Source of the DNA: Spirochaetales bacterium
Lineage (GTDB): Bacteria; Spirochaetota; Spirochaetia; JAIPGG01
Direction: 5' to 3'
DNA: 64,000 nt
Assembly: GCA_021736255.1 (NCBI GenBank)
Contig: JAIPGG010000004.1
Location: 3,747-67,746 of the forward strand
Part shown: positions 605 to 13,463 of the stretch, piece by piece
Layout: each line of letters starts with the position of its first letter
Numbering within the stretch: the stretch's first letter is position 1
The notes under the pieces: generated by a model
The model's input: the letters and a program-made list of their open reading frames with translations, nothing else
Told to the model about the DNA's origin: nothing
Database searches by the model: none
Translations under genes and position numbers: made by a program

Positions 605-1996
605 ATGCCGGTTGAAAAAACTACATTAAGCAGTAGTGATCGCAACAGAGGCCAACGGTTCCTCCGGCGTTTCGTTACCCTGAATGGAATCTCCGTAGCC
701 TTTCTCATGAACGATCTGTTGATACTCTACGGAATCCGGAACGGGCTCGATGATCCGCAGGTTGCACTGCTTGCCTCGTTTATCCATCTGTCCATGCCCT
801 TCATGCTTTTCGGTATGTCCTGGATCCGCCGGGTCGGAGCTGCGCGCACTTGGGGATACGGGTGGCTCTTTCGTTACCTCTCGGGTTCTGTTCTCATTCT
901 CGCGCCTTGGATCGGCCGTTTCGCTCCCGAAACATTTGTCCACCTGGTCATTCTCCTCGGTGCATTCGGCTTTGCTGTTTTCCGAAGCATCGGGTTGGTA
1001 GCGAACTCTCCGCTTATCGGGGAGATAACCACCGAAGGCGAACGGGGCCGGTTCCTTTCGGGAAACTGGGTACGGGCAAATACGACCTATTTCTTTTCCA
1101 TGGCGCTGATAATCGCAATCATGTACTATTTCGATACAATGTGGGTGTACCAGCTGGTCATCGGAGCCGGTTGCGTAATCGGAATATTTGCCAGCCGGGT
1201 ATTGGTCCGGGTCCCGGAAACAGAAGGACCGGCCCGTTCCGCCTCAGAACCGATGGGAAGAGCCCTGAAAGAGATCCTTTCTTCCCCTCGTCTGCGCAGG
1301 ATTATTTTCGCCTGGGGCTCTTCCTTTGCAGCCTTTGTTTTGGTGATTCCCTTTGCCGTCGTTACGGTGAAAAACGGCTACGGCCTGTCGGATTACGCCG
1401 CACTGATCTTTTCACTGCTGGTTTTGGCCGGGGGAATTCTCTCTTCAGCGATAAATGCAGGGGTTTCCGACCACAGCGGGCCCCGGCCGCTTTTGATCCT
1501 CTACGTTACCGGTTTGATTCTGGTAGCGGGGTACTGGGCCTTTGCTCCATCGAGGTTTGCGCCCATACCTACCGCTGCGGCGTTTTTCACCGCGGGTTTC
1601 TGTAAGACCGGCATCATCCTGACCAACAGCCATTACCTGCTCTCAGCCGTCGAAGCCGGCCGGCGGGTGAGTATTTCTCTCTTTGCGCGAATGGCCGGGG
1701 GCGCTATGGCAGGACTCGCCGCTTCGGTCGGCGGCGGCACGCTTCTTCGAATTCTGAGAGAGACCACCTTCGGTAATGTGAGCTTGAATGGAATCGAGGT
1801 CTACCACTGGTATTTCAGGATTCTGGTCCCTGTTCTCCTCCTCCTTTTACTTGTCGTCATGCGGCTGGAGCGACTCAAAGAATGGGGAGTACGCCGGGTA
1901 ATTTCGTTTGTTTTCTCCCTTCAGGGCCTTCAGACAATGCTCATGCCCTCTCAGGACAGTGAAAAAGACGGGAACGAGGAGGACGATTCACGATGA
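605..1996 (+). CDS. MFS-type transporter (about 12 predicted TM helices, acidic C-terminal tail)
   Basis: The 463-aa product is hydrophobic throughout, with the periodic TM segments typical of the major facilitator superfamily. Its stop overlaps the next start (ATGA at 1993-1996). Confidence 0.75.
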   Translation: MPVEKTTLSSSDRNRGQRFLRRFVTLNGISVAFLMNDLLILYGIRNGLDDPQVALLASFIHLSMPFMLFGMSWIRRVGAARTWGYGWLFRYLSGSVLILAPWIGRFAPETFVHLVILLGAFGFAVFRSIGLVANSPLIGEITTEGERGRFLSGNWVRANTTYFFSMALIIAIMYYFDTMWVYQLVIGAGCVIGIFASRVLVRVPETEGPARSASEPMGRALKEILSSPRLRRIIFAWGSSFAAFVLVIPFAVVTVKNGYGLSDYAALIFSLLVLAGGILSSAINAGVSDHSGPRPLLILYVTGLILVAGYWAFAPSRFAPIPTAAAFFTAGFCKTGIILTNSHYLLSAVEAGRRVSISLFARMAGGAMAGLAASVGGGTLLRILRETTFGNVSLNGIEVYHWYFRILVPVLLLLLLVVMRLERLKEWGVRRVISFVFSLQGLQTMLMPSQDSEKDGNEEDDSR

Positions 1997-2364
1997 AAGG
2001 AGTGAAAGGAGTACCCATGCCGCCGCTCGTTTTGATCGCCTGCACGGTGGTGATTGCGAGCGCCGGCCAACTGGCAGCACGCGGCGGCGCGCTTCTTGCC
2101 GGTCAGGCCCCTCTGTGGCTGGTGAGTGTGCTGTTTCTTGGCAGCTACCTGGCTCTTGCCGGACGGGGAGTGCTCTGGCTCTTCGTATTACGCAAAATGC
2201 CCCTCTCCGTTGCCTATCCGCTGTATGCTGCTGTTTTTTTCTTGGTACCTGCTGGGGCGGCATGGCTTTATGATGAAGCGGTTAGTCTTCACTCTGCCGC
2301 AGGCTGGGCTTTGATCGGAGGAGGGGTCGTGTTGACCGGCATTCGTGCGGGGAAACAACGTTGA
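1993..2364 (+). CDS. small 4-TM DMT/EamA-like membrane protein (ArnE/ArnF-like flippase subunit candidate)
   Basis: The 123-aa product has four hydrophobic helices. It is paired with a second similar ORF and sits next to a GT2 gene, as in arnC-arnE-arnF arrangements. Confidence 0.6.
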   Translation: MKGVKGVPMPPLVLIACTVVIASAGQLAARGGALLAGQAPLWLVSVLFLGSYLALAGRGVLWLFVLRKMPLSVAYPLYAAVFFLVPAGAAWLYDEAVSLHSAAGWALIGGGVVLTGIRAGKQR

Positions 2365-2735
2365 TTGAAGCGGGTTTGTTGTCACAGTTGAGGCCTTATC
2401 TTTTTCTCTGCGGAATGCTGATCCTGGTGACCGCCGGGCAGATTCTCCTGAAGGCAGGGGCCCCGCGAATGGAAACGGGGCAGGGACTGAAGACCTTCGT
2501 TATCAGCCTTTTCCGCCCCCCTTTGGTTATCGGGGCCGGGCTCGTTTTTTCCGCTCCGGTGTTGTATTTTCTGGCCCTCCGGGACCTGTCCCTCGGACAA
2601 GCCTTTGCCGTCTCTGCCCTCTCGATTGTCCTCGTTCCCGCAGGCGCCCGAATCTTCCTGCAGGAGAGGATTACACCTTTACAGCTAGCAGCAATGATTA
2701 TGATTGCGGGAGGAGTAGTCCTTGCCAACCTCTGA
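2361..2735 (+). CDS. small 4-TM DMT/EamA-like membrane protein (ArnE/ArnF-like, second subunit)
   Basis: 124 aa with a TTG start that overlaps the previous stop. It has four hydrophobic helices and is a paralogous partner of 1993-2364. Confidence 0.6.
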   Translation: MIEAGLLSQLRPYLFLCGMLILVTAGQILLKAGAPRMETGQGLKTFVISLFRPPLVIGAGLVFSAPVLYFLALRDLSLGQAFAVSALSIVLVPAGARIFLQERITPLQLAAMIMIAGGVVLANL

Positions 2736-3585
2736 TCGTATCAAAGTCTCTCTGATCATCCCCACATTTCATCCTGCCGAATTTCACCCGGAAAGGGCAT
2801 TCCACGGGGAAGATGTTTCATCCGGCGGAGATCCATATTTGAATACAGAGGTGCACAACCCAATACAGACCCTCAGCAGGATGATCAGCAGCTGTGCAGA
2901 CAAGGAAAGAGAGATCATAATCTGTGATGACGGAAGCGGGGCAGAATATCAAACAGCCCTCCGCAATCTCTGCAGAAACCAGAGGGATACGGAAATCTTT
3001 TCTCCACTGAAAAGGAACCGACTTCGCTGTATCTTCATGGACCGGAACCGGGGACAGCAGATTGCCACGATAGCAGGTATGAGTGTTGCCCGGGGCAGCT
3101 GGATTATTACCATGGATGACGACGGTGAGCATCCGCCCGAATGCATTGAAGAATTGATAGCCCGCGGAGAGGAAGGAAACGACTTGGTCTATGCCGCGGT
3201 AAAGCAGCCGGAGAAAAGGAAAACAACCTGTATGCGCAGAACCGGCTCTGCTCTCAATCAATTTCTGTTTACCCGCTTTCTTGGCCTTCCAAAGGAGGTT
3301 CGGGTTTCGAGTTTCCGCGCAATACGGGCAACTTGGTTCCGGCAGACTTTTGAAAATCTGGAGAATCCCTTCCCCTACCTTTCGGCTATGCTCCTCCGGG
3401 AAGGCCCTCGGGTTTCCTCCATCCGGTATTCCGGAAAAGCTGCCTCGGCAAGCCGGTACAGCATTGCCTCTCTCGCGCTAATCTGGTGGAAGCTTTTCCG
3501 CTTCTGGGGCCCTCTCCGGTTTATTCCGTCCGAACGGCCGCATTTGACCGCCGATGATATTCGGTCTATGTACCGGGAGAAATAG
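2722..3585 (+). CDS. family-2 glycosyltransferase (polyprenyl-phosphate sugar synthase-like, ArnC/DPM1-like)
   Basis: N-terminal VSLIIPTF, then IIICDDGSG and ITMDDDGEHPP (the DxD region), which are typical GT-A/GT2 signatures. The gene overlaps its upstream neighbour. Confidence 0.8.
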   Translation: MPTSDRIKVSLIIPTFHPAEFHPERAFHGEDVSSGGDPYLNTEVHNPIQTLSRMISSCADKEREIIICDDGSGAEYQTALRNLCRNQRDTEIFSPLKRNRLRCIFMDRNRGQQIATIAGMSVARGSWIITMDDDGEHPPECIEELIARGEEGNDLVYAAVKQPEKRKTTCMRRTGSALNQFLFTRFLGLPKEVRVSSFRAIRATWFRQTFENLENPFPYLSAMLLREGPRVSSIRYSGKAASASRYSIASLALIWWKLFRFWGPLRFIPSERPHLTADDIRSMYREK

Positions 3586-3610
3586 AGTGAGGAAGAAGCT
3601 CCGTTCAATC

Positions 3611-4891
3611 ATGGTACTCGGCGGGGGCAGCAGCCAGATTCATCTGCTGCAAAGGGCCCTGAAGGCCGGGTTTTATGTGATTCTCGCAGATAAAGATCCC
3701 GATGCACCCGGAAGACGGTACTGCAGCGAATTCGTAGAGGCTTCCACCTTCGACATAGATGCGGTAACGCAGGCAGCCTCCCGGACCGGTGCCGAACGGA
3801 TTATTGCCGCCGGAAGCGATCAGCCGGTACTCACCGCTGCCGCAGCCTCGGCGGCCAACGGTCTGCCCTATCCCCTTTCTCCGGAAACCGCCCTTGCGGT
3901 AACGAACAAGCGAATAATGAAAACTATCTTTCACAAGGCTGATATTCCGACGGTCCGCTGGGCCCTTGCCGATGAAGATGGGAACCTGACGTTTGAACCG
4001 CAACAACAAGCAGAAAAGCCCCGCCCCCTCTTCGAGTCAACAGCCTCTCCTCTGGTGGTAAAACCGGTGGACAGCCAGGGACAGCGGGGTGTTCTGCTCG
4101 TCGACGACCGGAAGAAGATAAAGCAGGCAGCAAGCTACGTTCTCTCATACTCCCGGGAACCTGTTTTTTTGGTAGAGGAATATTATCCTTCGGGGGAAGT
4201 AACGGTTTCAGGCTGGGTGGAAAACGAAAAATGTAAAATCTATGCCGTAACCGACCGGGTAACCATCGATAATCCGCCGAGTCTGGGTGTTTGCACCGCC
4301 CACCGATATCCTTCCCGTTTTTTTCCTGAATTCAAGGAGGAGTTCGAAACGATCACCCGGCAGATAGTATCTTCCTTCGGCATCAGATCAGGCCCGATCT
4401 ATTTTCAGTACTTGATCGGGAAAGAGGGAATCAAGGTAAACGAGATAGCCTGCAGGCTCGGCGGAGCATACGAGGATGAATCTCTTCCGCGGGTCACCGG
4501 CATCGACATCATTGGAAAACTGCTGGGGGAAACGGAGGAAGCAGGCGGCGACAGGATAAGCCGAGAAAACAATACAAACCTGCACAAATATTTCTCTGTC
4601 CCTCTGATCTTCTGCAAACCCGGGCTGATACGTGAAATCCACGGAACCGGAGCAAGCCGGAAGATGAAAGGTGTTCACTCGCTATCCATTCTTCAAAAAC
4701 CGGGTACTCAAATAACCGATATGCAGAACTCCACCCAACGAGCGGCCTATGCCGTTATATCCGGTTTCACTGTCGGGGAGGTGAATAGGGCGGTCGATGA
4801 ATTATTCGATACCCTTCGGTTCTCCGATGAAAGGGGAAACGACCTATTGATAGACAGCCGGGATTCCTGCAAACTGAATCAGGATTTATGA
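3611..4891 (+). CDS. ATP-grasp domain carboxylate-amine ligase
   Basis: A pre-ATP-grasp Rossmann segment (IMVLGGGSSQIHLLQRALKAGFYVILADKD) is followed by an ATP-grasp body (PLVVKPVDSQGQRGV..., EEYYPSGEVTVSG, NEIACRLGG). The start is uncertain: ATG 3611, GTG 3587, or the ORF-track start 3554. Confidence 0.7.
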   Translation: MVLGGGSSQIHLLQRALKAGFYVILADKDPDAPGRRYCSEFVEASTFDIDAVTQAASRTGAERIIAAGSDQPVLTAAAASAANGLPYPLSPETALAVTNKRIMKTIFHKADIPTVRWALADEDGNLTFEPQQQAEKPRPLFESTASPLVVKPVDSQGQRGVLLVDDRKKIKQAASYVLSYSREPVFLVEEYYPSGEVTVSGWVENEKCKIYAVTDRVTIDNPPSLGVCTAHRYPSRFFPEFKEEFETITRQIVSSFGIRSGPIYFQYLIGKEGIKVNEIACRLGGAYEDESLPRVTGIDIIGKLLGETEEAGGDRISRENNTNLHKYFSVPLIFCKPGLIREIHGTGASRKMKGVHSLSILQKPGTQITDMQNSTQRAAYAVISGFTVGEVNRAVDELFDTLRFSDERGNDLLIDSRDSCKLNQDL

Positions 4892-5910
4892 TGGGAAAGC
4901 AGCAGAACCGGCAATATTTTTTTCTTATTATCGCCCTGGTATTGATCGCTCCGCTCGTTCTTGGCTTTCTCGGATGCGGTAGGGAATCTGATCCGCAAAC
5001 GCATTCTGCCGGCACGAAAAGCGGCAAACAGCCGGTTTTACGCATTGCAGAACAGTACGGACTGGCCTATGCCCCGCTTTCTGTTGCCAAGGCCCGGGGA
5101 CTCGTGCAAGCGGAGCTTCCCGGATGGCGAATCGAGTGGAAACAACTCGGGAATACAGCGGCTATTCGAGAGGCAATGATCGCAAAGGATCTCGATACTG
5201 GTTTCATGGGGATCCCCCCGTTCCTGATCGGCTGGGACCGGGGTATGAAATGGAAAATCTTTACCGGTCTTTCACAGGCCCCCCTCGGTCTTGTTACCTG
5301 GCGATCTGATATCCGCTCACTCGAAGACTTTGACCGAGACGACAGGATCGCACTCCCTCAACCCGGCAGCATCCAGCATATTCTCTTATCGATGGCAGCC
5401 GAACGGAGCCTCGGCGCCCCGAAGGCCTTCGATTCCAGGCTGGTAACACTCAACCACCCCAACGGCATGCAAGCATTGCTCGCCAGGCGGGATATTACCG
5501 CGCATTTCACCTCCCCCCCCTACCTGATGATGGAGCTTGCAACAGAAGATATGCACGAGGTGATTTCCGGACAGGAAGCAATGGGCGGTGAGTTTACGTT
5601 CATTGTCGGAACGGTAACCGATGAGTTTGCAGACAGAAATCCGGAAGCTGTGAAAGGTCTCGAACGAGCACTCGACAGGGCGATGACAATTTTGGCCGCC
5701 GGCGGAGGACGAAAGGAACTGGCCGCCGGCTTCAATCTCGAATTACCGGAGATCGAAAGCTATCTCGATCATCCCGATCTCGTCTATACCACAGAGGTTC
5801 AGGGGCTCGCTGAGTTTCTGGATTTTATGCTGCGACACAATTTTATCCGGAGAAAACCCGAAGAGAAAGAAGGAGTTTCCGGACTCTTGTGGGCTGGAGC
5901 CACGAAGTGA
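4888..5910 (+). CDS. ABC transporter substrate-binding lipoprotein, NMT1/SsuA/TauA-like (NitT/TauT family)
   Basis: A lipobox (LGFLGC) follows a hydrophobic signal, and the fold resembles periplasmic aliphatic-sulfonate/taurine/nitrate binders. The start overlaps the ATP-grasp stop (ATGA). Confidence 0.7.
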   Translation: MMGKQQNRQYFFLIIALVLIAPLVLGFLGCGRESDPQTHSAGTKSGKQPVLRIAEQYGLAYAPLSVAKARGLVQAELPGWRIEWKQLGNTAAIREAMIAKDLDTGFMGIPPFLIGWDRGMKWKIFTGLSQAPLGLVTWRSDIRSLEDFDRDDRIALPQPGSIQHILLSMAAERSLGAPKAFDSRLVTLNHPNGMQALLARRDITAHFTSPPYLMMELATEDMHEVISGQEAMGGEFTFIVGTVTDEFADRNPEAVKGLERALDRAMTILAAGGGRKELAAGFNLELPEIESYLDHPDLVYTTEVQGLAEFLDFMLRHNFIRRKPEEKEGVSGLLWAGATK

Positions 5911-6704
5911 CCCCCTCCAAGCGCCTTCTGCATGGAAGAAACAGAATAGTACGAAGGCTGATTTGGGTTGTCGTAATAATTGCCGGTTATGAAATAATAC
6001 GCCGGGGTCTGGAGATCTCTCCGCTCGCACTGCCCCCGATCGTGGAGATAGGAAGCGCCTTTTTTGCCGGTTTTGGAGAAGGAGACCTGCTCCAACAGCT
6101 TGTCCGGTCCTTGATTTTGATCGCAGCGGCCCTCGCTGCAGGAGCTGGGGCCGCCCTTGGTCTGGCCCTGCTCAGTGTTCGCCGTTCCTTTTTTGCCGAG
6201 CTCATCGACGGCCTGGTGGCCATATTCCATCCTCTTCCCGGCATCGCTCTTCTGCCCATTGTCATCCTCTGGTTCGGCACGGGTACCGCCTCTCTGCTGG
6301 TAATCATTATTCATTCCGTCCTCTGGCCGATGATAACGAACCTTACCGCCGGTTTGCGGGGAGTCTCTCCGACCCAAATCATGGCAGGAAAGAACCTCGG
6401 CATGGGCCGTTCCGAACTCTTTTTCCGAATCCTTCTGCCCGCTTCCTTGCCCTATATTATAGCGGGAATGCGGATTGCCTGGGCCCGAAGCTGGAGAGCC
6501 CTTATTAGTGCAGAGATGGTCTTCGGAGCTATCGCAGGGGCCGGAGGAATCGGCTGGTATCTTTATTCGAAGCGGGTCTTCATGGACTCGGCCGGACTGT
6601 TTGCCGGTGTTGTTCTTATTATTCTGATCGGGGTACTGGTAGAGGATGTGGTCTTCCGCCGGATTCAGAGGAAAACGGTAGAACGGTGGGGAATGGAACG
6701 CTGA
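5889..6704 (+). CDS. ABC transporter permease (NitT/TauT family)
   Basis: Six TM segments and an EAA-like loop region (ARSWRALISAEMV), in the context of the neighbouring SBP and ATPase genes. Confidence 0.8.
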   Translation: MGWSHEVTPSKRLLHGRNRIVRRLIWVVVIIAGYEIIRRGLEISPLALPPIVEIGSAFFAGFGEGDLLQQLVRSLILIAAALAAGAGAALGLALLSVRRSFFAELIDGLVAIFHPLPGIALLPIVILWFGTGTASLLVIIIHSVLWPMITNLTAGLRGVSPTQIMAGKNLGMGRSELFFRILLPASLPYIIAGMRIAWARSWRALISAEMVFGAIAGAGGIGWYLYSKRVFMDSAGLFAGVVLIILIGVLVEDVVFRRIQRKTVERWGMER

Positions 6705-7471
6705 TGGAAGAACGGATAATTTTCTCCGCCGAGAGAATTGTAAAATACTACCAGAATGGCGAAACAGGGGTACCCGTTTTATCGAATATTTCATTGAAGC
6801 TGAAGGAGAGAGAATTCGTCTGCATTCTCGGGCCCTCAGGCTGCGGGAAATCGACACTGCTACGGGTTCTTTCCTCCCTCGAAAAGGCCGATTCTGGAAC
6901 TATCGCTCTCGACGGGAACGAGATTACAGGTCCCGGCCCCGATCGAATGCTCATCTTTCAGGAGCAGGACCAGCTCTTCCACTGGCTGAGCACACGTTCG
7001 AATATTCATTTGGCCCTTGGCAAAACAGGCACTCAGAGCGAGCAAGAGCGTGAAAAACAAACCACAGCACTCCTTCGTCAATTCGGATTACAGGAAGCAG
7101 GAGACAAGTTTCCTCATCAGCTTTCCGGCGGAATGAAACAGCGGGCTGCCATCGCCAGGTCACTGGCAGCCGGTCCCCGAATTCTTTTTCTTGATGAACC
7201 GTTTTCCAGTCTCGACGCGATGACCCGAGAACACCTCCAGATATTTCTCCTCGACCTCTGGAAAAGGAGGAATCTTACACTGCTTTTTGTAACCCATGAT
7301 ATTACCGAGGCAGCTCTTCTTTCGGACCGGATAATTATTATGAATGCTGAGGGTAAGCTCGTAAAAGAAGTCGAGAATACACTCAGCCGCCCCCGGGACC
7401 GGGACGGAACAGACCTTCACAAATTCACTGCCGTTCTCCGGCAGGAGCTTTCCCATAATCCCGGTCTTTGA
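6704..7471 (+). CDS. ABC transporter ATP-binding protein (NitT/TauT family)
   Basis: Walker [10 protein letters not shown], signature LSGGMKQR, Walker B LFLDEP. ATG 6704 overlaps the permease stop (TGATG); the alternative GTG start is at 6686. Confidence 0.85.
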   Translation: MEERIIFSAERIVKYYQNGETGVPVLSNISLKLKEREFVCILGPSGCGKSTLLRVLSSLEKADSGTIALDGNEITGPGPDRMLIFQEQDQLFHWLSTRSNIHLALGKTGTQSEQEREKQTTALLRQFGLQEAGDKFPHQLSGGMKQRAAIARSLAAGPRILFLDEPFSSLDAMTREHLQIFLLDLWKRRNLTLLFVTHDITEAALLSDRIIIMNAEGKLVKEVENTLSRPRDRDGTDLHKFTAVLRQELSHNPGL

Positions 7472-9098
7472 TCCGGTAGACAGTTACCGCCCATTCTTTC
7501 CTGTCCTGATAAAGCACAAGCCGCATCCCGTAAACAGGATTCACTATCTCTGCAATTTTTTCACCCTGCTCATCGAGGATATCTTTCAACCGGGGATACC
7601 ACGGCGCGATATTTCCATAGACTGTGTTCCAGACCGGCCGGCTGCGGTAGATTAACTCGAGTTCCTCGGGAAGTAGTATATATTCAACCCTCTCCTGAGC
7701 TAAAAACCTTCCTATCCCCGGGAAATCCGGTCCGCTGAGATCCCGAAAAACCCTGAGTTTCCCATGGTCGAAAGCAAAGGCGGTATTCAAGTTTGCAAGC
7801 ACAGTCGCATCGCCGGGCACATGTCTTTGAATAGCTTCGATATAATCAGCATACCGGGACTTGCGCCAGGGCAGCACTGTATCCGCTGTGTTCCACAAGA
7901 GAAATCCGAAGACTCCTGTCAGGACAAGGATGCCGGCGAGCCTTACAGCCTTACTGAATTGTAAACTGACTTTCCCATATCCTTTTGCTGCCTCCACAAT
8001 AAAAGACAAGAAAACAATAAAACCAAGATAACCGAGGGGGAACAGAAACAATATGCTCGGGGGTGAATATTTTCCAATCAGGAAATATCCAACAGCAACA
8101 AGAGGCAAGCCTGCAAGCAGCCATCCGAATATATCTTTTCCGGAGTTTTGTTTTTTGCGTATGAAGAGGAGACCCACCGTTCCTATCCACGAAACGAGAA
8201 AAAGGCGCAGCTGAAATCCAACCGGCGGTAAAAAGTAGGTTCCGGCAATCTGTCCGTCAATCTTCCGAAAAAAAGAAAAGAACCTGGATAGTCGAGTCAC
8301 CGGATGATCAGTCACCCCTACTTCCCTTCCGAATTCCAGATAATTGTAAAGAAAGTCCGGGTCCATGATGAAGCTTACGGCAACTGCCGATGCAGCACAT
8401 ACAGCCAATCCCAAAATCAGTATACCTGCAGCAGGGAGGGGTCCGATGGTCCTGCTTTTGCTCTTTTTCCTCGAAAGAAGAAACCACAGAAAAAAGGGAA
8501 AGGGAAGTGCGATAATAAAACTGTTTGGATGAATGAAAACCCCGGCGCCGAGAATAAGCGATAAAAGAAAACTGTCGCGAACTCGCCAATCCCTACTTTG
8601 AACCGTCACATACCAAATACCGGCACACATAAGCAGAACCATAAAAATTTCCTGCCTTCCGATATGAGATGCGGTAATAAACTGAATATCTACAGATAGC
8701 AGGATGGCGGGAATCATCCCCGCTGCAACACTTCCAAAGCGGGAAGTAAAAAGACGCCGCCCGGCATCAGCGAGAAACAGCAGGGATGCAAACCCTGCTC
8801 CAAGAGAGGGAACCCTTGCAGCAACGGCAGACCAATCAACCGCTATAAAGGGCATTTGAAAGAGATGAAAAAGGATTTTTATCGCATGCGGCATGCGGGG
8901 TGTACTGTGGAAAAAGTCCTCGGTGGCCGCAAGGGAACCGGATTCAATCATGGACCTGGTCAGTGATGCAAGCCAGGCCTCGTCGGAATGGACAAAGGGG
9001 AAGAAAGGCAAAGACCAGATGTGGAACAAGAGGTAGGCTGCTATGGCTGCTGCGGCAGCGGCGACGCCGAGCAGTTTTCTGTTCACTCCTTTCCTCAC
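7425..9098 (-). CDS. GT-C fold membrane glycosyltransferase (ArnT/PMT-like, GT39/GT83-like)
   Basis: 557 aa with more than 10 TM helices. An acidic DE motif sits after TM1 (FVHSDEAWLA) and there is a soluble C-terminal domain of about 150 aa. GTG start. The 3' end overlaps the convergent ABC ATPase gene by 47 nt. Confidence 0.7.
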   Translation of the reverse strand: MRKGVNRKLLGVAAAAAAIAAYLLFHIWSLPFFPFVHSDEAWLASLTRSMIESGSLAATEDFFHSTPRMPHAIKILFHLFQMPFIAVDWSAVAARVPSLGAGFASLLFLADAGRRLFTSRFGSVAAGMIPAILLSVDIQFITASHIGRQEIFMVLLMCAGIWYVTVQSRDWRVRDSFLLSLILGAGVFIHPNSFIIALPFPFFLWFLLSRKKSKSRTIGPLPAAGILILGLAVCAASAVAVSFIMDPDFLYNYLEFGREVGVTDHPVTRLSRFFSFFRKIDGQIAGTYFLPPVGFQLRLFLVSWIGTVGLLFIRKKQNSGKDIFGWLLAGLPLVAVGYFLIGKYSPPSILFLFPLGYLGFIVFLSFIVEAAKGYGKVSLQFSKAVRLAGILVLTGVFGFLLWNTADTVLPWRKSRYADYIEAIQRHVPGDATVLANLNTAFAFDHGKLRVFRDLSGPDFPGIGRFLAQERVEYILLPEELELIYRSRPVWNTVYGNIAPWYPRLKDILDEQGEKIAEIVNPVYGMRLVLYQDRKEWAVTVYRIKDRDYGKAPAGERQ

Positions 9099-9206: not shown

Positions 9207-10148
9207 TTACTGCACAACAGGGTATCCTTCGGTTACCCAGCCCATGGGCTCGTTCTTCGGTGTTCCCATACCGCCTTTGAGAGAGGCGGCATCATAACCG
9301 ATGACCTTCAGGATGGCCACAGTCTGCCCGGCAGTCTGTCCGCTGTAGCAATTTACTATGAGCTTCTTGTCTGCGGGAAGGCTTCCGAACATCTCGTGCA
9401 TATCGGCCCCGTAGGGAATGTTGACGGCCGTTTCGATATGCCCCTGGTCGTAGTCTTCTTTTCGGCGGATATCGACGAACTGCACCGAATCATCTTCTGC
9501 ATCGAGGATCTTCTTTGCGTTCTCTGAACTAATGATGTTGTTTGCAAAGGGAGTTCCGGCAAGTTCTTCGAATTCCTTATAATAGGCGTCTACCGTTTCC
9601 TGTACGGCCGGAGCGATCTCATTGTTTGCAGAGGGTACGGCTACCTCGGTAGTATCGATAAACTCATCTGCGCCTTCTACCTTGGAAAAACCGTAGTTGA
9701 ACCCGTACCGCACGGACTTGACGGGGATTCCGGCAAGGTTCAAGAGCGCCACCGTCTGCCCGGCGGTCTGCCCGCTGTAGCAGTAGAGATAGACCTGTCC
9801 GCTCTGGGGAATAGATGCCAGGTACTGTGCAAAATCCGGGCCCCAGGGCATGTTTACCGCTCCGGTAACATGTGCCTCTGCATAGGCATCGGGTTGACGG
9901 ATATCAATAACGAACATATCCTCGCCGTTTTGCAGCTTCTCGAGGAGCATCTCCTCCTTGATAATGTAGCCGCCCTGAGGGTATTCGTCGAAGTAGTCCT
10001 TTGCGAGTTCAGTTACATCAACAGCCGGTTCAGCAGCTTCCTGGGCCTGCTGTTCTCCCTGCGCACCTTCCTGCTGCCCCTTCGCGGTTACGGTCGCCGC
10101 GGAAAGTACCAGCAGAAGCACCAATAGAATGGGAAAGAGCTTTTTCAT
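9207..10148 (-). CDS. exported tandem-rhodanese sulfurtransferase
   Basis: Start reassigned to MKKLFPILLVLLLVLSAATVTA (signal peptide, RBS GGAGGAAG). There are two rhodanese domains, each with an active-site loop CYSGQTAGQT. Confidence 0.8.
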   Translation of the reverse strand: MKKLFPILLVLLLVLSAATVTAKGQQEGAQGEQQAQEAAEPAVDVTELAKDYFDEYPQGGYIIKEEMLLEKLQNGEDMFVIDIRQPDAYAEAHVTGAVNMPWGPDFAQYLASIPQSGQVYLYCYSGQTAGQTVALLNLAGIPVKSVRYGFNYGFSKVEGADEFIDTTEVAVPSANNEIAPAVQETVDAYYKEFEELAGTPFANNIISSENAKKILDAEDDSVQFVDIRRKEDYDQGHIETAVNIPYGADMHEMFGSLPADKKLIVNCYSGQTAGQTVAILKVIGYDAASLKGGMGTPKNEPMGWVTEGYPVVQ

Positions 10149-10233
10149 TGCTTCCTCCGAAAATTTCTTGTATTTATCTACTCCATCCGCCGGGCAAACT
10201 GCTCCGGTACGGATGGAGGTCCTGCACACTGTT

Positions 10234-11133
10234 TTATGAATTGTCCGCTGCTTCCAGTTCGAGAACCTCCGGGTCGGGCACATAAACCGGATTCATCGGG
10301 TTCGCGCTCCATTCAACCCACGCGCCGTCGTAAAGCTTCAGGTCCCGGTAACCGGCATTGTAGAGCGCCAGATACGTCTGGGCCCCGCGGATCGAAGTTT
10401 TGCAAAACATGATCACGGTATCGTCGAAATCGATGTCTTCTTCGAGGTAGCGAATTCTGATCTGCTGTACCGGTTTGTAGGTTCCGTCCTGGAAATTATT
10501 GCCGGTGAAATTCAAAAGAATCGATCCGGGGATGGTTCCCTCTTTGTATTCTTCTTCCGTCCGCGTATCGACAATACAGGTATTCTCGTCCGGGGTGTCG
10601 AGATGGTCTCGAATGTCTTCAGTAGTGGCTATCATTTCATCACGCCGAGGACCGGGTTCGAAAACAGCCGGCTGAACCGATGGCTTATCAGTGGTGATCT
10701 TTGCCCCCTCTTGCTTCATTGCAGCCAGGCCGCCGCTTACAACCTTTACCTGATCGTGTCCGTAGACCTTGAGGGTCCACCACAAACGGGCCGAATCCAT
10801 ATTTTTGTTGTTATCGTAAACAACAACCTGGGTATCATTGCTGATCCCCCGGCTTCCCATGACCTCGGCAATCTGCTCGGGCGGAGCCAAGAGGTTGGGA
10901 TACGGATCATTTACGACTATGTCTGCCCGGGCAATCGATACGGCTCCTGCAACATGTTCCTTCCGATAATCCAGAAGGTTCTGAGCATCCACAAGAAGGG
11001 CCCCTTCGCTTACGAGAGTTTGTGCCTCGGCGGCAGTAATTACCTCGGTATCTTGTTCACCGGCCGGCGGTGTCCCGCAGGCGAGAAGCGGAAGAACTAA
11101 AACCGCCACAACGGCTAACAGCTTGATCTTCAT
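10234..11133 (-). CDS. thiosulfate sulfurtransferase-like rhodanese lipoprotein (two-domain, SseA/TST-like)
   Basis: Lipoprotein signal MKIKLLAVVAVLVLPLLAC. It has an inactive N-terminal and a catalytic C-terminal rhodanese domain with loop CKTSIRG. Confidence 0.8.
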   Translation of the reverse strand: MKIKLLAVVAVLVLPLLACGTPPAGEQDTEVITAAEAQTLVSEGALLVDAQNLLDYRKEHVAGAVSIARADIVVNDPYPNLLAPPEQIAEVMGSRGISNDTQVVVYDNNKNMDSARLWWTLKVYGHDQVKVVSGGLAAMKQEGAKITTDKPSVQPAVFEPGPRRDEMIATTEDIRDHLDTPDENTCIVDTRTEEEYKEGTIPGSILLNFTGNNFQDGTYKPVQQIRIRYLEEDIDFDDTVIMFCKTSIRGAQTYLALYNAGYRDLKLYDGAWVEWSANPMNPVYVPDPEVLELEAADNS

Positions 11134-11160: not shown

Positions 11161-12414
11161 TTATACCGAAACCGGCTCGGCAACATATTTGTTCAGGGCT
11201 TCATAGATATGGGGCTTATCGCACTGGGTGGAAGTCTCAACCACTTCTCCCTCCTTGGTATAGAAGATGGTCATTGGTTCCACATCACAGGCAAGCCGGT
11301 CACAAAGGGATTTCCCCTTGTACTGATCGATGACATTCACTTTAACCTGACCGTCATATTCTTCTTCGATCTCCCGCAGCATAGGAAGCAGCTCTCGGCT
11401 CGGTGCATCGATAGCCGAGTACACGTAAATCAGACCTATCTTTTCCTTCTGCATGATCTGGTTTTTAAAGAGCTCGGTTTCCGAAATATGTTTTTCAGCT
11501 TCTACCCCGGCGATTGCACCGTCACCAACGGCGGTTGCAACCTGCTTGAGTTCTTTTTCTCGCACATCCCCGCATGCATAGACTCCGGCGATTCCTGTTT
11601 CCATCTTTTCATTGGTAATGACATATCCCTGCTTGCTGAGAGAAAGTTTGTCTTTGAATATCTCGGTGTTCGGTACATAGCCGATGAACTCGAAACAGGT
11701 ATCCACGTCGATGGGTATAATCTCTCCGGTCTTCAGGTTCTTGAGGTTCACCCGCTCGAGCTGCTCATCGCCTTCGAAGGAGTCGACTACTGTGTTCCAT
11801 ACGAACTCCATCTTCGGATTGTCGAGGGCCTGATCGCGTGAGATCTCGTTGCAGTCCATTTTCCCCTCATCGTGGATGACCGATACGATGACCTTCTTGG
11901 CAAACTTGCTTAGAAACATCCCTTCTTCAATAGCTGCATCCCCGGAACCAATAACCATAACGGTCTTGTCGGTATTTGCCGCAGCATCACAGGTAGCACA
12001 AAAAGATATACCCTTGTCGAAAAGGTATTTCTCCTCGTTCTCGGCACCTGTCGTCCTCGGTCTTCCGCCTGAGGCAACAATCACCGTCTTGGCTTCGAAA
12101 ATATTCCGAAAGGTTTCGACCTTCTTTACTTCGCCGTCGAGTTCGACATTCTTGACATCGGTAAGTTTGAACTTTACACCGAAGTTTTTTGCCTGTTTCT
12201 GGAAGAGCTCCATCAGGCCGAGACCGGTATTTCCCTCCGGAAAGCCGGGGTAATTCATGATCTCGTTCGTGTAGGTGGCTAACCCGCCGACCAGAGACTT
12301 TTCGATAAGCAGGGTTTTCAACTGCGCCCTGCCGCAGTATATTCCTGCAGTCATTCCACCGGCGCCTCCGCCGATTATGACCACATCATATTGTTCTACC
12401 TTCTTTTCTCGCAT
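11161..12414 (-). CDS. thioredoxin-reductase-like flavoprotein fused to a C-terminal thioredoxin-fold domain
   Basis: FAD site VVIIGGGAGG, redox-active CATCD, and second dinucleotide site VIGSGDAAIEE. HDEGKMDC stands where TrxR has HRRDxxRA. The roughly 100-aa C-terminal Trx-like fold has no CxxC. Confidence 0.8.
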   Translation of the reverse strand: MREKKVEQYDVVIIGGGAGGMTAGIYCGRAQLKTLLIEKSLVGGLATYTNEIMNYPGFPEGNTGLGLMELFQKQAKNFGVKFKLTDVKNVELDGEVKKVETFRNIFEAKTVIVASGGRPRTTGAENEEKYLFDKGISFCATCDAAANTDKTVMVIGSGDAAIEEGMFLSKFAKKVIVSVIHDEGKMDCNEISRDQALDNPKMEFVWNTVVDSFEGDEQLERVNLKNLKTGEIIPIDVDTCFEFIGYVPNTEIFKDKLSLSKQGYVITNEKMETGIAGVYACGDVREKELKQVATAVGDGAIAGVEAEKHISETELFKNQIMQKEKIGLIYVYSAIDAPSRELLPMLREIEEEYDGQVKVNVIDQYKGKSLCDRLACDVEPMTIFYTKEGEVVETSTQCDKPHIYEALNKYVAEPVSV

Positions 12415-12993: not shown

Positions 12994-13221
12994 CTACTTT
13001 GTCTTTTCGATGATGACTTCCCATTCACCATCGTCAATCTCTTCGATTTCTACGTTGTGTCCCTCGGTGCGGGCCCATTCGGGAACATTCTTCATTGCAC
13101 AGCTGTGATCGAGCTGAACAATCAGTACATCGCCAACCTCCAGTTCTTCGAGTTTCTTCTGTGCTTTTACCAGAGGAACCGGACAGGCTTCACCGTAACA
13201 ATCTAATTCGACTTCCTTCAT
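12994..13221 (-). CDS. TusA/YeeD-like sulfur carrier protein (copy 1, 75 aa)
   Basis: CPxP-type motif DCYGEACPVPLVKAQKKL. Start reassigned to MKEVELD (RBS AGGAG). The ORF-track N-terminal extension overlaps copy 2. Confidence 0.85.
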   Translation of the reverse strand: MKEVELDCYGEACPVPLVKAQKKLEELEVGDVLIVQLDHSCAMKNVPEWARTEGHNVEIEEIDDGEWEVIIEKTK

Positions 13222-13235
13222 AGCTGTGCTCCTTT

Positions 13236-13463
13236 CTATTTCGTTTTCTCTATGATGACTTCCCATTCACCGTCGTCGATCTCTTCGATCTCGACATTGT
13301 GGCCCTCGGTGCGGGCCCATTCGGGAACATTCTTCATCGCACAACTGTGATCGAGCTGAACGATCAGCACATCACCCACTTCCAGTTCTTCGAGTTTTTT
13401 CTGTGCCTTAACCAGGGGGACCGGACAGGCTTCACCGTAACAATCTAATTCGACTTCCTTCAT
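13236..13463 (-). CDS. TusA/YeeD-like sulfur carrier protein (copy 2, 75 aa, protein identical to copy 1)
   Basis: Same 75-aa sequence as copy 1. RBS GAGGTG. Confidence 0.85.
   Translation of the reverse strand: MKEVELDCYGEACPVPLVKAQKKLEELEVGDVLIVQLDHSCAMKNVPEWARTEGHNVEIEEIDDGEWEVIIEKTK

Follow-up and report, generated by a model that had tools for sequence, protein, structure and literature searches.

Several thioredoxin reductases (TRs) of low relative molecular mass (low-Mr) that do not use pyridine nucleotides, including FFTR, TRi and DFTR, have a lost or degraded GxGxxA(xE) motif in addition to lacking HRRxxxR (PMC10880999, PMC5627308), and the NADH-using TRs of Thermoplasma acidophilum (TaTR) and Thermotoga maritima (TmTR) also lack HRR (PMC6262447, PMC5627308). 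TrxB contacts thioredoxin through F141/F142 and a GRG turn (PMC5627308). Among sulfur importers, split YedE1E2 transporters take up zero-valent sulfur (PMC10812762), and for the decomposition of YeeD-bound thiosulfate the electron route has been stated to be unknown, with acceptor proteins yet to be found (PMC11073785). Thiosulfate reduction that relies on rhodaneses, in anaerobes that do not reduce sulfate, leads to souring and corrosion of oil and gas installations; the published accounts involve rhodaneses and sulfite reductase and name no enzyme for reducing the sulfane sulfur (PMC5497025, PMC3035371): Sediminispirochaeta smaragdinae converts thiosulfate and elemental sulfur (S0) to sulfide by a rhodanese-linked route to which no reductase has been assigned (PMC3035371), and the work on Halanaerobium likewise names no sulfane reductase (PMC5497025). 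Here we analysed a stretch of 64,000 nucleotides (the window) from a Spirochaetales bacterium (assembly GCA_021736255.1, contig JAIPGG010000004.1) that encodes a TrxR-like flavoprotein fused to a thioredoxin-family domain, in a row with genes for two YeeE halves, TusA and rhodaneses. On balance, we lean towards reading this flavoprotein as a specialised low-Mr TrxR paralogue that serves the split-YeeE/TusA sulfur-import module rather than the general thioredoxin pool, as a dedicated and probably NADH-linked enzyme.

The reductase part has the low-Mr TrxR layout that an earlier, sequence-only reading had ascribed to it. Pfam Pyr_redox_2 spans residues 9-299 (E 7e-43), and the GGGAGG, CATC and GSGDAAIEE motifs all lie where the translation places them (Table 1). 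The full-length structure prediction which that reading had proposed, made with AlphaFold2 (AF2) on a 79-sequence alignment, reached a predicted local distance difference test (pLDDT) score of 90.2 and a predicted TM-score (pTM) of 0.81; a Foldseek search with the whole model returned TrxR matches only, led by the D. radiodurans TrxR 2q7v at a TM-score of 0.92, and the reductase part superposes on TrxRs in the flavin-oxidising conformation. The same D. radiodurans enzyme is the best PDB sequence match (E 7e-78), and the FFTR/DTR-class relatives 6gna, 5n0j and 5jri are detectable at E 1e-18 to 1e-26. On the NCBIfam TrxB equivalog model TIGR01292 the protein scores 311.8 bits, under the cut-off of 343.45. 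The AhpF homologue family TIGR03143, in which a TrxR module precedes about 240 aa containing two thioredoxin folds and a CxxC, was rejected as an assignment: the score is 310.6 bits against a cut-off of 687.65 and covers profile positions 4-311 only, and true members are about 555 aa long, carry a C-terminal CxxC and a REPEFTC motif and form a separate clade.

One change in the reductase core lies at the site that binds the NADPH 2'-phosphate in TrxB. In alignments to the E. coli sequences (trxB, ahpF and trxA from NC_000913), VHLIHRRDGFRAE of the window protein matches VSVIHDEGKMDCN of TrxB, with a two-residue insertion in the preceding strand (beta2). HDEGKMDC stands at HRRDGFRA: R176, R177 and R181 of TrxB correspond to D182, E183 and D187, and A182 to C188, while H175 is retained as H181. 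Since the TrxB alignment and the 2q7v match share one register, the HRR motif is replaced, with reversal of charge, and not merely shifted, a possibility that the sequence-only reading had wanted checked. We followed the site through two sets of relatives, a close set of the 120 closest database relatives (73-100% identity; Alkalispirochaeta, Sediminispirochaeta and related metagenome-assembled genomes (MAGs)) and a wider set of 120 further relatives collected around a more distant clade member. CATCD and GSGDAA[IV]EE are invariant in the close set, and VIHD.GKMDCNE is almost invariant. The wider set has H-[DE]-x-G-[KI]-M-D-C-N in 119 of 120 sequences, with H at the K/I position in the remaining one, and only position 183 varies freely. 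Across about 240 relatives GSGDAAIEE and H-[DE]-x-G-x-M-D-C-N hardly vary, so the replacement motif is under strong selection and has not decayed.

This pattern bears on the electron donor. Both GxGxxA and HRRxxxR are lost in the FFTR/TRi/DTR classes, whereas GSGDAAIEE is kept here; absence of HRR with a retained pyrophosphate motif is instead the pattern of the NADH-dependent low-Mr TRs. Because a conserved pyrophosphate motif is combined with a conserved acidic replacement at the 2'-site, NADH would be the best fit and the more economical reading, and it is likelier as donor than ferredoxin or deazaflavin. The likeness to ferredoxin- and deazaflavin-dependent TRs that had been drawn earlier therefore stands for the loss of HRR but goes no further, as those enzymes also lose GxGxxA and NADH-using TRs lack HRR as well.

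The genomic setting of the flavoprotein gene is highly consistent. In the window all seven genes of the row lie on the minus strand, in the order YeeE N-terminal half, tusA, tusA, YeeE C-terminal half, reductase, rhodanese lipoprotein and second rhodanese; intergenic gaps are 9-27 nt, but about 85 nt before the last gene, and genes carry their own Shine-Dalgarno sites, with a strong one, AAGAGGAG, 6 nt 5' of the reductase ATG. The order YeeE-N/TusA/YeeE-C/reductase on one strand was present in 14 of the 14 loci examined with a relative of at least 57% identity, namely S. smaragdinae (two assemblies), A. americana, nine genome-collection loci (Spirochaetales MAGs, Eubacteriales MAGs, Paenibacillus sp. 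DMB20 and Bacillota MAGs), P. dendritiformis and Geosporobacter ferrireducens. Rhodanese genes come next in 7 of these, and the Firmicutes loci often have a divergent LysR regulator and one more TusA-like gene. We found no free thioredoxin gene in any of the 14 loci. The YeeE-linked clade is monophyletic (support 100/100), and within it the sister group of the window's own subclade is a Spirochaetales subclade that has CxxC in its fused domain. Across the phylum the module is rare, with 3 occurrences in 301 sampled genomes. Elsewhere the window's genome has a canonical TrxB (TIGR01292, 365.6 bits; VHRRDRFRA, with FF kept) and two classical thioredoxins (WCMPC and WCAPC). The functional tie to the neighbouring TusA and YeeE proteins that had been suggested from this one locus thus extends across phyla. 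Overall, the earlier observations were confirmed and their interpretation partly supported, being right about the TusA/YeeE link while NADH is the likelier donor.

The partner proteins are recognisable at the level of Pfam families, the YeeE halves in PF04143 and TusA in PF01206, and fall below the thresholds for characterised transporters: the YeeE halves score 20-80 bits on three TsuA models (NCBIfam cut-offs 400 and 645), and the window's TusA scores 50.9 bits on the TsuB model (cut-off 147.5). TusA itself is exceptionally conserved, with C13 (of CPxP) and C41 invariant in 12 orthologues. The tandem tusA genes (12994-13463) share 90% DNA identity and encode identical 75-aa products, all 23 nucleotide differences being synonymous; a tandem tusA duplicate also occurs at one Eubacteriales locus. 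The downstream rhodanese open reading frame (ORF) is listed as 358 aa (9207-10283), and an internal Met at 10148 is the probable start, which gives a signal peptide. Because of this signal peptide and the lipobox LLAC of the other rhodanese, both rhodaneses are likely exported. The reductase and TusA are cytoplasmic.

The surface with which TrxB meets its substrate has also changed. In the E. coli TrxB complex, the thioredoxin contact is made through F141/F142 and the GRG turn. The corresponding G[R/K]G and the Phe-Phe after CATCD are absent from the window protein, and DKG and AAAN take their places clade-wide. CATCDAAAN occurs in 113 of the 120 wider-clade relatives and, within the close family, in 115 of 119 sequences across eight listed motif variants, the other 4 reading AASN; in a thioredoxin-partnered sister family of about 40% identity, AEFF is kept in 114 of 117. 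When 127 sequences of one clade were compared with 116 of the other, the positions at which the clades are fixed for different residues were clustered in two stretches, 133-150 around the redox disulfide and 237-249. The substrate-side surface has thus been rebuilt and remodelled away from thioredoxin. Two more cysteines lie in the nucleotide-binding domain: C188 (11851-11853), at A182 of TrxB, is present in both the YeeE-linked and the thioredoxin-linked clades, and C240 (11695-11697) is invariant in the YeeE-linked clade and is Val in the sister clade.

Several lines of evidence indicate that the fused C-terminal domain is a true thioredoxin relative, as first proposed. It matches PF00085 (27.9 bits); a domain profile built from 17 family members matches PDB thioredoxins, including E. 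coli Trx1, over 96 of 99 positions at E 1e-16 to 1e-26 (best 2e-26); and in the AF2 model the domain follows a long linker helix and has the order beta-alpha-beta-alpha-beta-beta-alpha. The domain has no CxxC of the WCGPC type, which agrees with the earlier view that it is not a classical thioredoxin. C32, G33, P34 and C35 of TrxA correspond to D336, A337, P338 and S339, so the site reads I-D-A-P-S. The cis-Pro P76 of TrxA is retained as P380, and C371 and C376 fall at A67 and I72; CDRLAC, which contains them, is indeed the sole paired-Cys motif of the domain. C371 is found in 120 of 120 and C376 in 117 of 120 close relatives, and none of the 120 wider relatives has Cys at either position. Among these wider relatives the canonical site is CxxC in 15, xxxC (mostly DPKC) in 76 and without Cys in 29, and the sister Spirochaetales subclade keeps CxxC in its fused domain (CELC at locus L016, CSNC at L017 and CVNC at L022). 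Purifying selection acts on the domain as a whole: its mean pairwise identity is 68%, and it has invariant residues. By the distribution of Cys among the relatives, the canonical CxxC site is dispensable for the module, Asp at the C32 position is the common state, and the CDRLAC pair is a lineage-specific gain that coincided with complete loss of the old site. C371 and C376 may form a relocated thiol pair beside the old active-site groove in this subclade only. CDRLAC cannot be a general requirement of the module, because it is absent from the 120 wider relatives and members at L015 and L018 have no Cys at all. The earlier idea that the thioredoxin-like domain may serve docking or persulfide handling is still plausible.

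We suggest a mechanism in which a pyridine nucleotide, most likely NADH, would reduce the flavin adenine dinucleotide (FAD), which would then, as happens in TrxB, pass the electrons to the C139/C142 disulfide. Once the domains have rotated in the manner usual for TrxB, the C139/C142 dithiol would attack sulfur held on the TusA/YeeD carrier as a persulfide, a thiosulfonate or an intramolecular C13-C41 disulfide, releasing sulfide and regenerating the carrier. The fused thioredoxin-family domain would most likely work as a tethered adaptor, bringing either TusA or YeeE, by its cytoplasmic face, to the reductase, and the imported substrate may be thiosulfate or zero-valent sulfur. In this scheme we infer the donor, the acceptor and the role of the thioredoxin-like domain from the patterns described above.

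Some observations weigh against this proposal. The donor is assigned by motif logic and TusA is named as acceptor by gene order. At the 2'-site the acidic residue comes one position after the usual NADH Glu: AhpF, which is NADH-specific, has Glu at the H175 position, where the window protein has His followed by Asp. The old active site of the fused domain varies in the wider set, so the role of this domain may differ between lineages. Full-length TsuA/TsuB loci, including that of the probable S. thermophila genome, do not have this reductase, which is therefore not a universal YeeE/YeeD partner. Finally, asrC was not found in the 82%-complete genome of the window (best 35.5 bits, cut-off 324), leaving the fate of sulfite unexplained. 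One speculation is that the exported rhodaneses cleave thiosulfate outside the cell and the sulfane sulfur alone enters, which would explain the lack of asrC.

Four other explanations have to be set beside a dedicated, probably NADH-linked reductase. With the same acceptor side, the electrons might come from reduced ferredoxin, flavodoxin or another non-pyridine donor, as in FFTR, TRi and DTR. HRRxxxR is absent as in FFTR, DFTR, TRi and DTR, the hosts are mostly fermentative anaerobes with abundant ferredoxin, and 6gna, 5n0j and 5jri are detectable homologues; yet the FFTR/TRi/DTR classes are also without GxGxxA(xE) (PMC10880999, PMC5627308), which is near-invariant here as GSGDAAIEE, the window protein is far closer to NADPH-TrxRs than to FFTR/DTR structures (E values above), and the clade extends to facultatively aerobic Paenibacillus. 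We consider a donor of this kind rather unlikely. It is quite unlikely that the protein is a second, NADH-linked general thioredoxin reductase with a vestigial fused domain, whose recycled thioredoxins would reduce TusA or rhodanese persulfides as in GlpE-thioredoxin chemistry. Such a role would suit the two free thioredoxins of the genome and the Firmicute/Desulfobulbus family in which the gene for a reductase with H[DE]EG and no Cys in its C-terminal domain immediately follows that for a free 108-aa thioredoxin (CSVC), but that sister family keeps the docking Phe-Phe which the YeeE-linked clade has replaced along with remodelling residues 133-150, no locus of the 14 includes a free thioredoxin gene, and purifying selection still acts on the fused domain.

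The substrate side leaves two further options. A small sulfur compound, such as polysulfide, thiosulfate, S-sulfocysteine or a persulfide of low molecular weight, might be reduced directly at the CATC dithiol with no protein carrier, the analogues being the NAD(P)H sulfur/polysulfide reductases NSR and Npsr. In T. maritima, NSR, a cytoplasmic flavoprotein that uses NAD(P)H, can reduce thiosulfate and polysulfide and is co-induced with yeeE (PMC9431562), and zero-valent sulfur is what the split YedE1E2 transporters import (PMC10812762). Loss of the protein-docking Phe-Phe would also fit a non-protein substrate. We nevertheless find direct reduction improbable, given that TusA is extremely conserved and always lies between the YeeE halves next to the reductase, that the thioredoxin-family domain is retained, and that in TrxB-type enzymes the dithiol is exposed only upon domain rotation, to a protein partner. 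The module might instead handle selenium, as a YedE/YedF-type system whose reductase acts on selenite or selenotrisulfides. TrxR systems do reduce selenite, and both YeeE halves score about 103 bits on the YedE/FdhT selenium model against 49-80 on the TsuA models, all of these scores lying far below cut-off. A search for selD in the 82%-complete genome found nothing above 19 bits (cut-off 125), which weakens a selenium role although such an absence is no proof; the operon also has two rhodaneses, and S. smaragdinae has a thiosulfate- and S0-reducing phenotype. Taken together these points make a selenium function highly improbable.

In a bolder version of the favoured reading, a dedicated YeeE/TusA-linked reductase, the clade would be the enzyme still missing from YeeE/TusA-type sulfur import, the one through which electrons enter. 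Acting as an NADH:TusA-persulfide (or thiosulfonate) oxidoreductase, it would form sulfide from the thiosulfate or sulfane sulfur brought into the cell, and its fused domain would, in the subclade of the window, have shifted its thiol chemistry from the canonical CxxC to C371/C376 by the cis-Pro groove. We put this forward tentatively, as possible rather than probable. If true, thiosulfate or S0 could serve as an NADH sink in fermenters such as Sediminispirochaeta, of which S. smaragdinae carries the module. In the literature searched we found no description of such a YeeE-linked reductase, and papers on SoxT and on disproportionation do not mention one. Because the flavoprotein is always encoded with a channel and a carrier, and its docking surface is remodelled away from thioredoxin, it is a concrete and testable candidate for two gaps, the source of reductant for YeeE/YeeD and the reduction of sulfane sulfur. 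The module is present in the cultured strains S. smaragdinae, Paenibacillus dendritiformis and Geosporobacter ferrireducens, which makes a test of the candidate practical. The family also offers a natural series of change in TrxR cofactor and partner, from HRR to HD.G..D, from FF to AA, and from CxxC through DxxC to DxxS.

Table 1. Coordinates of the reductase gene, its motifs and the neighbouring genes in the window, with the ORFs of one comparison locus in that locus's own numbering.
Feature	Position	Strand	Evidence or remark
TrxR-like flavoprotein fused to thioredoxin-family domain, 417 aa	11161..12414	-	ORF and translation, Pfam, NCBIfam, AF2 model, Foldseek top match 2q7v
FAD-binding GGGAGG, residues 15-20	12355..12372	-	Translation; G15/G17/G20 columns invariant
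DKG, residues 133-135, at thioredoxin-contact G[R/K]G site	12010..12018	-	TrxB alignment; D133 100% in YeeE-linked clade vs G 100% in thioredoxin-partnered clade
Redox-active CATC, C139 and C142	11989..12000	-	CATCD in 120/120 close and 120/120 wider relatives
AAAN, residues 144-147, instead of TrxB G-F-F-Y thioredoxin-docking loop	11974..11985	-	F141/F142 = A145/A146
GSGDAAIEE dinucleotide pyrophosphate motif (GxGxxAxE), retained	11923..11949	-	111/120 close (9 others GSGDAAVEE), 118/120 wider relatives
HDEGKMDCN in place of HRRDGFRAE	11848..11874	-	Alignments to E. coli TrxB and 2q7v
Thioredoxin-family domain, residues 312-407	11194..11481	-	PF00085 27.9 bits (cut-off 23.5), profile vs PDB, AF2 secondary-structure order
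DAPS at canonical CGPC position	11398..11409	-	Alignment to E. coli TrxA and the genome's own thioredoxins
CDRLAC, C371 and C376, in and just after helix alpha3, four residues before cis-Pro P380	11287..11304	-	
YeeE/YedE N-terminal half, 243 aa	13484..14215	-	PF04143 profile positions 1-161 of 310; syntenic at all clade loci
TusA/YeeD-type carrier copy 1, 75 aa, C8, C13-P-V-P, C41	13236..13463	-	PF01206 E 6e-25
TusA copy 2, protein identical to copy 1	12994..13221	-	23 synonymous nucleotide differences
YeeE/YedE C-terminal half, 181 aa	12439..12984	-	PF04143 profile positions 164-310 of 310
Two-domain rhodanese lipoprotein, lipobox LLAC	10234..11133	-	PF00581 twice; GGAGG ribosome-binding site; syntenic in 7 loci
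Second exported two-domain rhodanese (export likely)	9207..10148	-	PF00581 twice; likely start = MKKLFPILL Met at 10148
L107 ORF	8399-9847	+	
L107 ORF	8027-8269	-	
L107 ORF	7020-8012	-	
L107 ORF	5643-5996	-	

Other genes recur beside this or related modules. A DegT aminotransferase, a GT2 glycosyltransferase and an ATP-grasp ligase adjoin the module in a Bacillota MAG (L020, 10449-13565) and in Geosporobacter ferrireducens (L111, 1-1959), and the same set lies upstream in the window (605-9098), so this sugar-transfer set and the sulfur module go together in different phyla. An assimilatory link through a cysteine synthase beside the S. smaragdinae operon was considered and rejected, as the PALP gene there encodes a Ser/Thr or hydroxyaspartate dehydratase and not CysK. 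Locus L107 (G094:C1:838000-853000) comes from a complete genome of 2,560,222 bp, probably that of S. thermophila, and its TsuA passes the Spirochaeta TsuA model with 559 bits. The genes that flank its yeeD-yeeE pair encode a divergent 482-aa class-I pyridine-nucleotide disulfide reductase, which has a dimerisation domain, and a GcvH lipoyl protein; they may provide an analogous but non-homologous route for electrons, or may simply belong to glycine cleavage. At L108 (G127:C37:18000-32000), a full-length TsuA occurs with a rhodanese, two TusA, DsrE2, ThiF, a JAB peptidase and an enzyme of O-acetylhomoserine sulfhydrylase type, which is an assimilation cluster of the sulfur-carrier-protein type, without a flavoprotein.

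Compared with known systems, the window protein shares with low-Mr TrxB (E. coli 1F6M/1TDF and D. radiodurans 2q7v) the two-domain fold (TM-score 0.92, 42% identity), the FAD motif, CATC in the nucleotide domain and GxGxxAxE. It differs in having HDExxxD for HRRxxxR, AA for FF and DKG for GRG, as well as the two-residue insertion in strand beta2 and the extra C-terminal thioredoxin-family domain. Its TrxR-linker-thioredoxin domain order is that of NTRC-type fusions such as Chlamydomonas NTRC (7p9d/7p9e), a type that M. leprae also has as a TrxR-thioredoxin fusion, but it has DAPS instead of CxxC, no NADPH motif, and linkage to YeeE/TusA rather than to peroxiredoxin. TaTR (3cty) and TmTR, likened here by the descriptions in the papers, are also low-Mr TR scaffolds without the Arg cluster that use a pyridine nucleotide other than NADPH (PMC6262447, PMC5627308); unlike the window protein, they have no fused domain and reduce free thioredoxin or a glutaredoxin-like protein. 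FFTR, TRi, DTR and DFTR resemble it in lacking HRRxxxR and in being found in anaerobes, but are without the GxGxxA that it retains (PMC10880999, PMC5627308), and TRi, in contrast to it, keeps the thioredoxin-docking residues (PMC5627308).

The sister family is one of about 405 aa from Firmicutes and Desulfobulbus that is named 'thioredoxin-disulfide reductase' and has about 40% identity, H[DE]EG.LDC, GSGD.AIEE and a Cys-less C-terminal thioredoxin-family domain. In this family, unlike the YeeE-linked clade, the docking FF is kept, the gene directly follows one for a free atypical 108-aa thioredoxin (CSVC), and there is no YeeE/TusA linkage. The position behind a dedicated thioredoxin suggests that the ancestral job was to reduce that thioredoxin, whose gene is gone from the YeeE-linked clade. 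The family is widespread, with members in Clostridium beijerinckii, Desulfitobacterium, Desulfosporosinus and Desulfobulbus (for example at L009 7657-9224, L012 5633-7221 and L027 7591-9158), and we found no characterisation of it.

In its proposed job the window protein resembles the NAD(P)H sulfur, polysulfide and persulfide reductases, among them T. maritima NSR, which is a cytoplasmic flavoprotein that uses NAD(P)H to make sulfide from sulfane sulfur or thiosulfate and occurs alongside yeeE (PMC9431562). NSR belongs to a different flavoprotein class, the single-Cys CoADR type, and its active-site arrangement is not homologous. The CoADR-rhodanese Npsr, an NAD(P)H persulfide reductase, is of the same single-Cys type. 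With the YeeE(TsuA)-YeeD(TsuB) systems of E. coli and Spirochaeta thermophila, the module has in common a YeeE-family channel and a TusA-family partner with a CPxP cysteine, but in the window YeeE is split into two genes that flank tusA, the proteins score under the TsuA and TsuB cut-offs, and a dedicated flavoprotein is attached.

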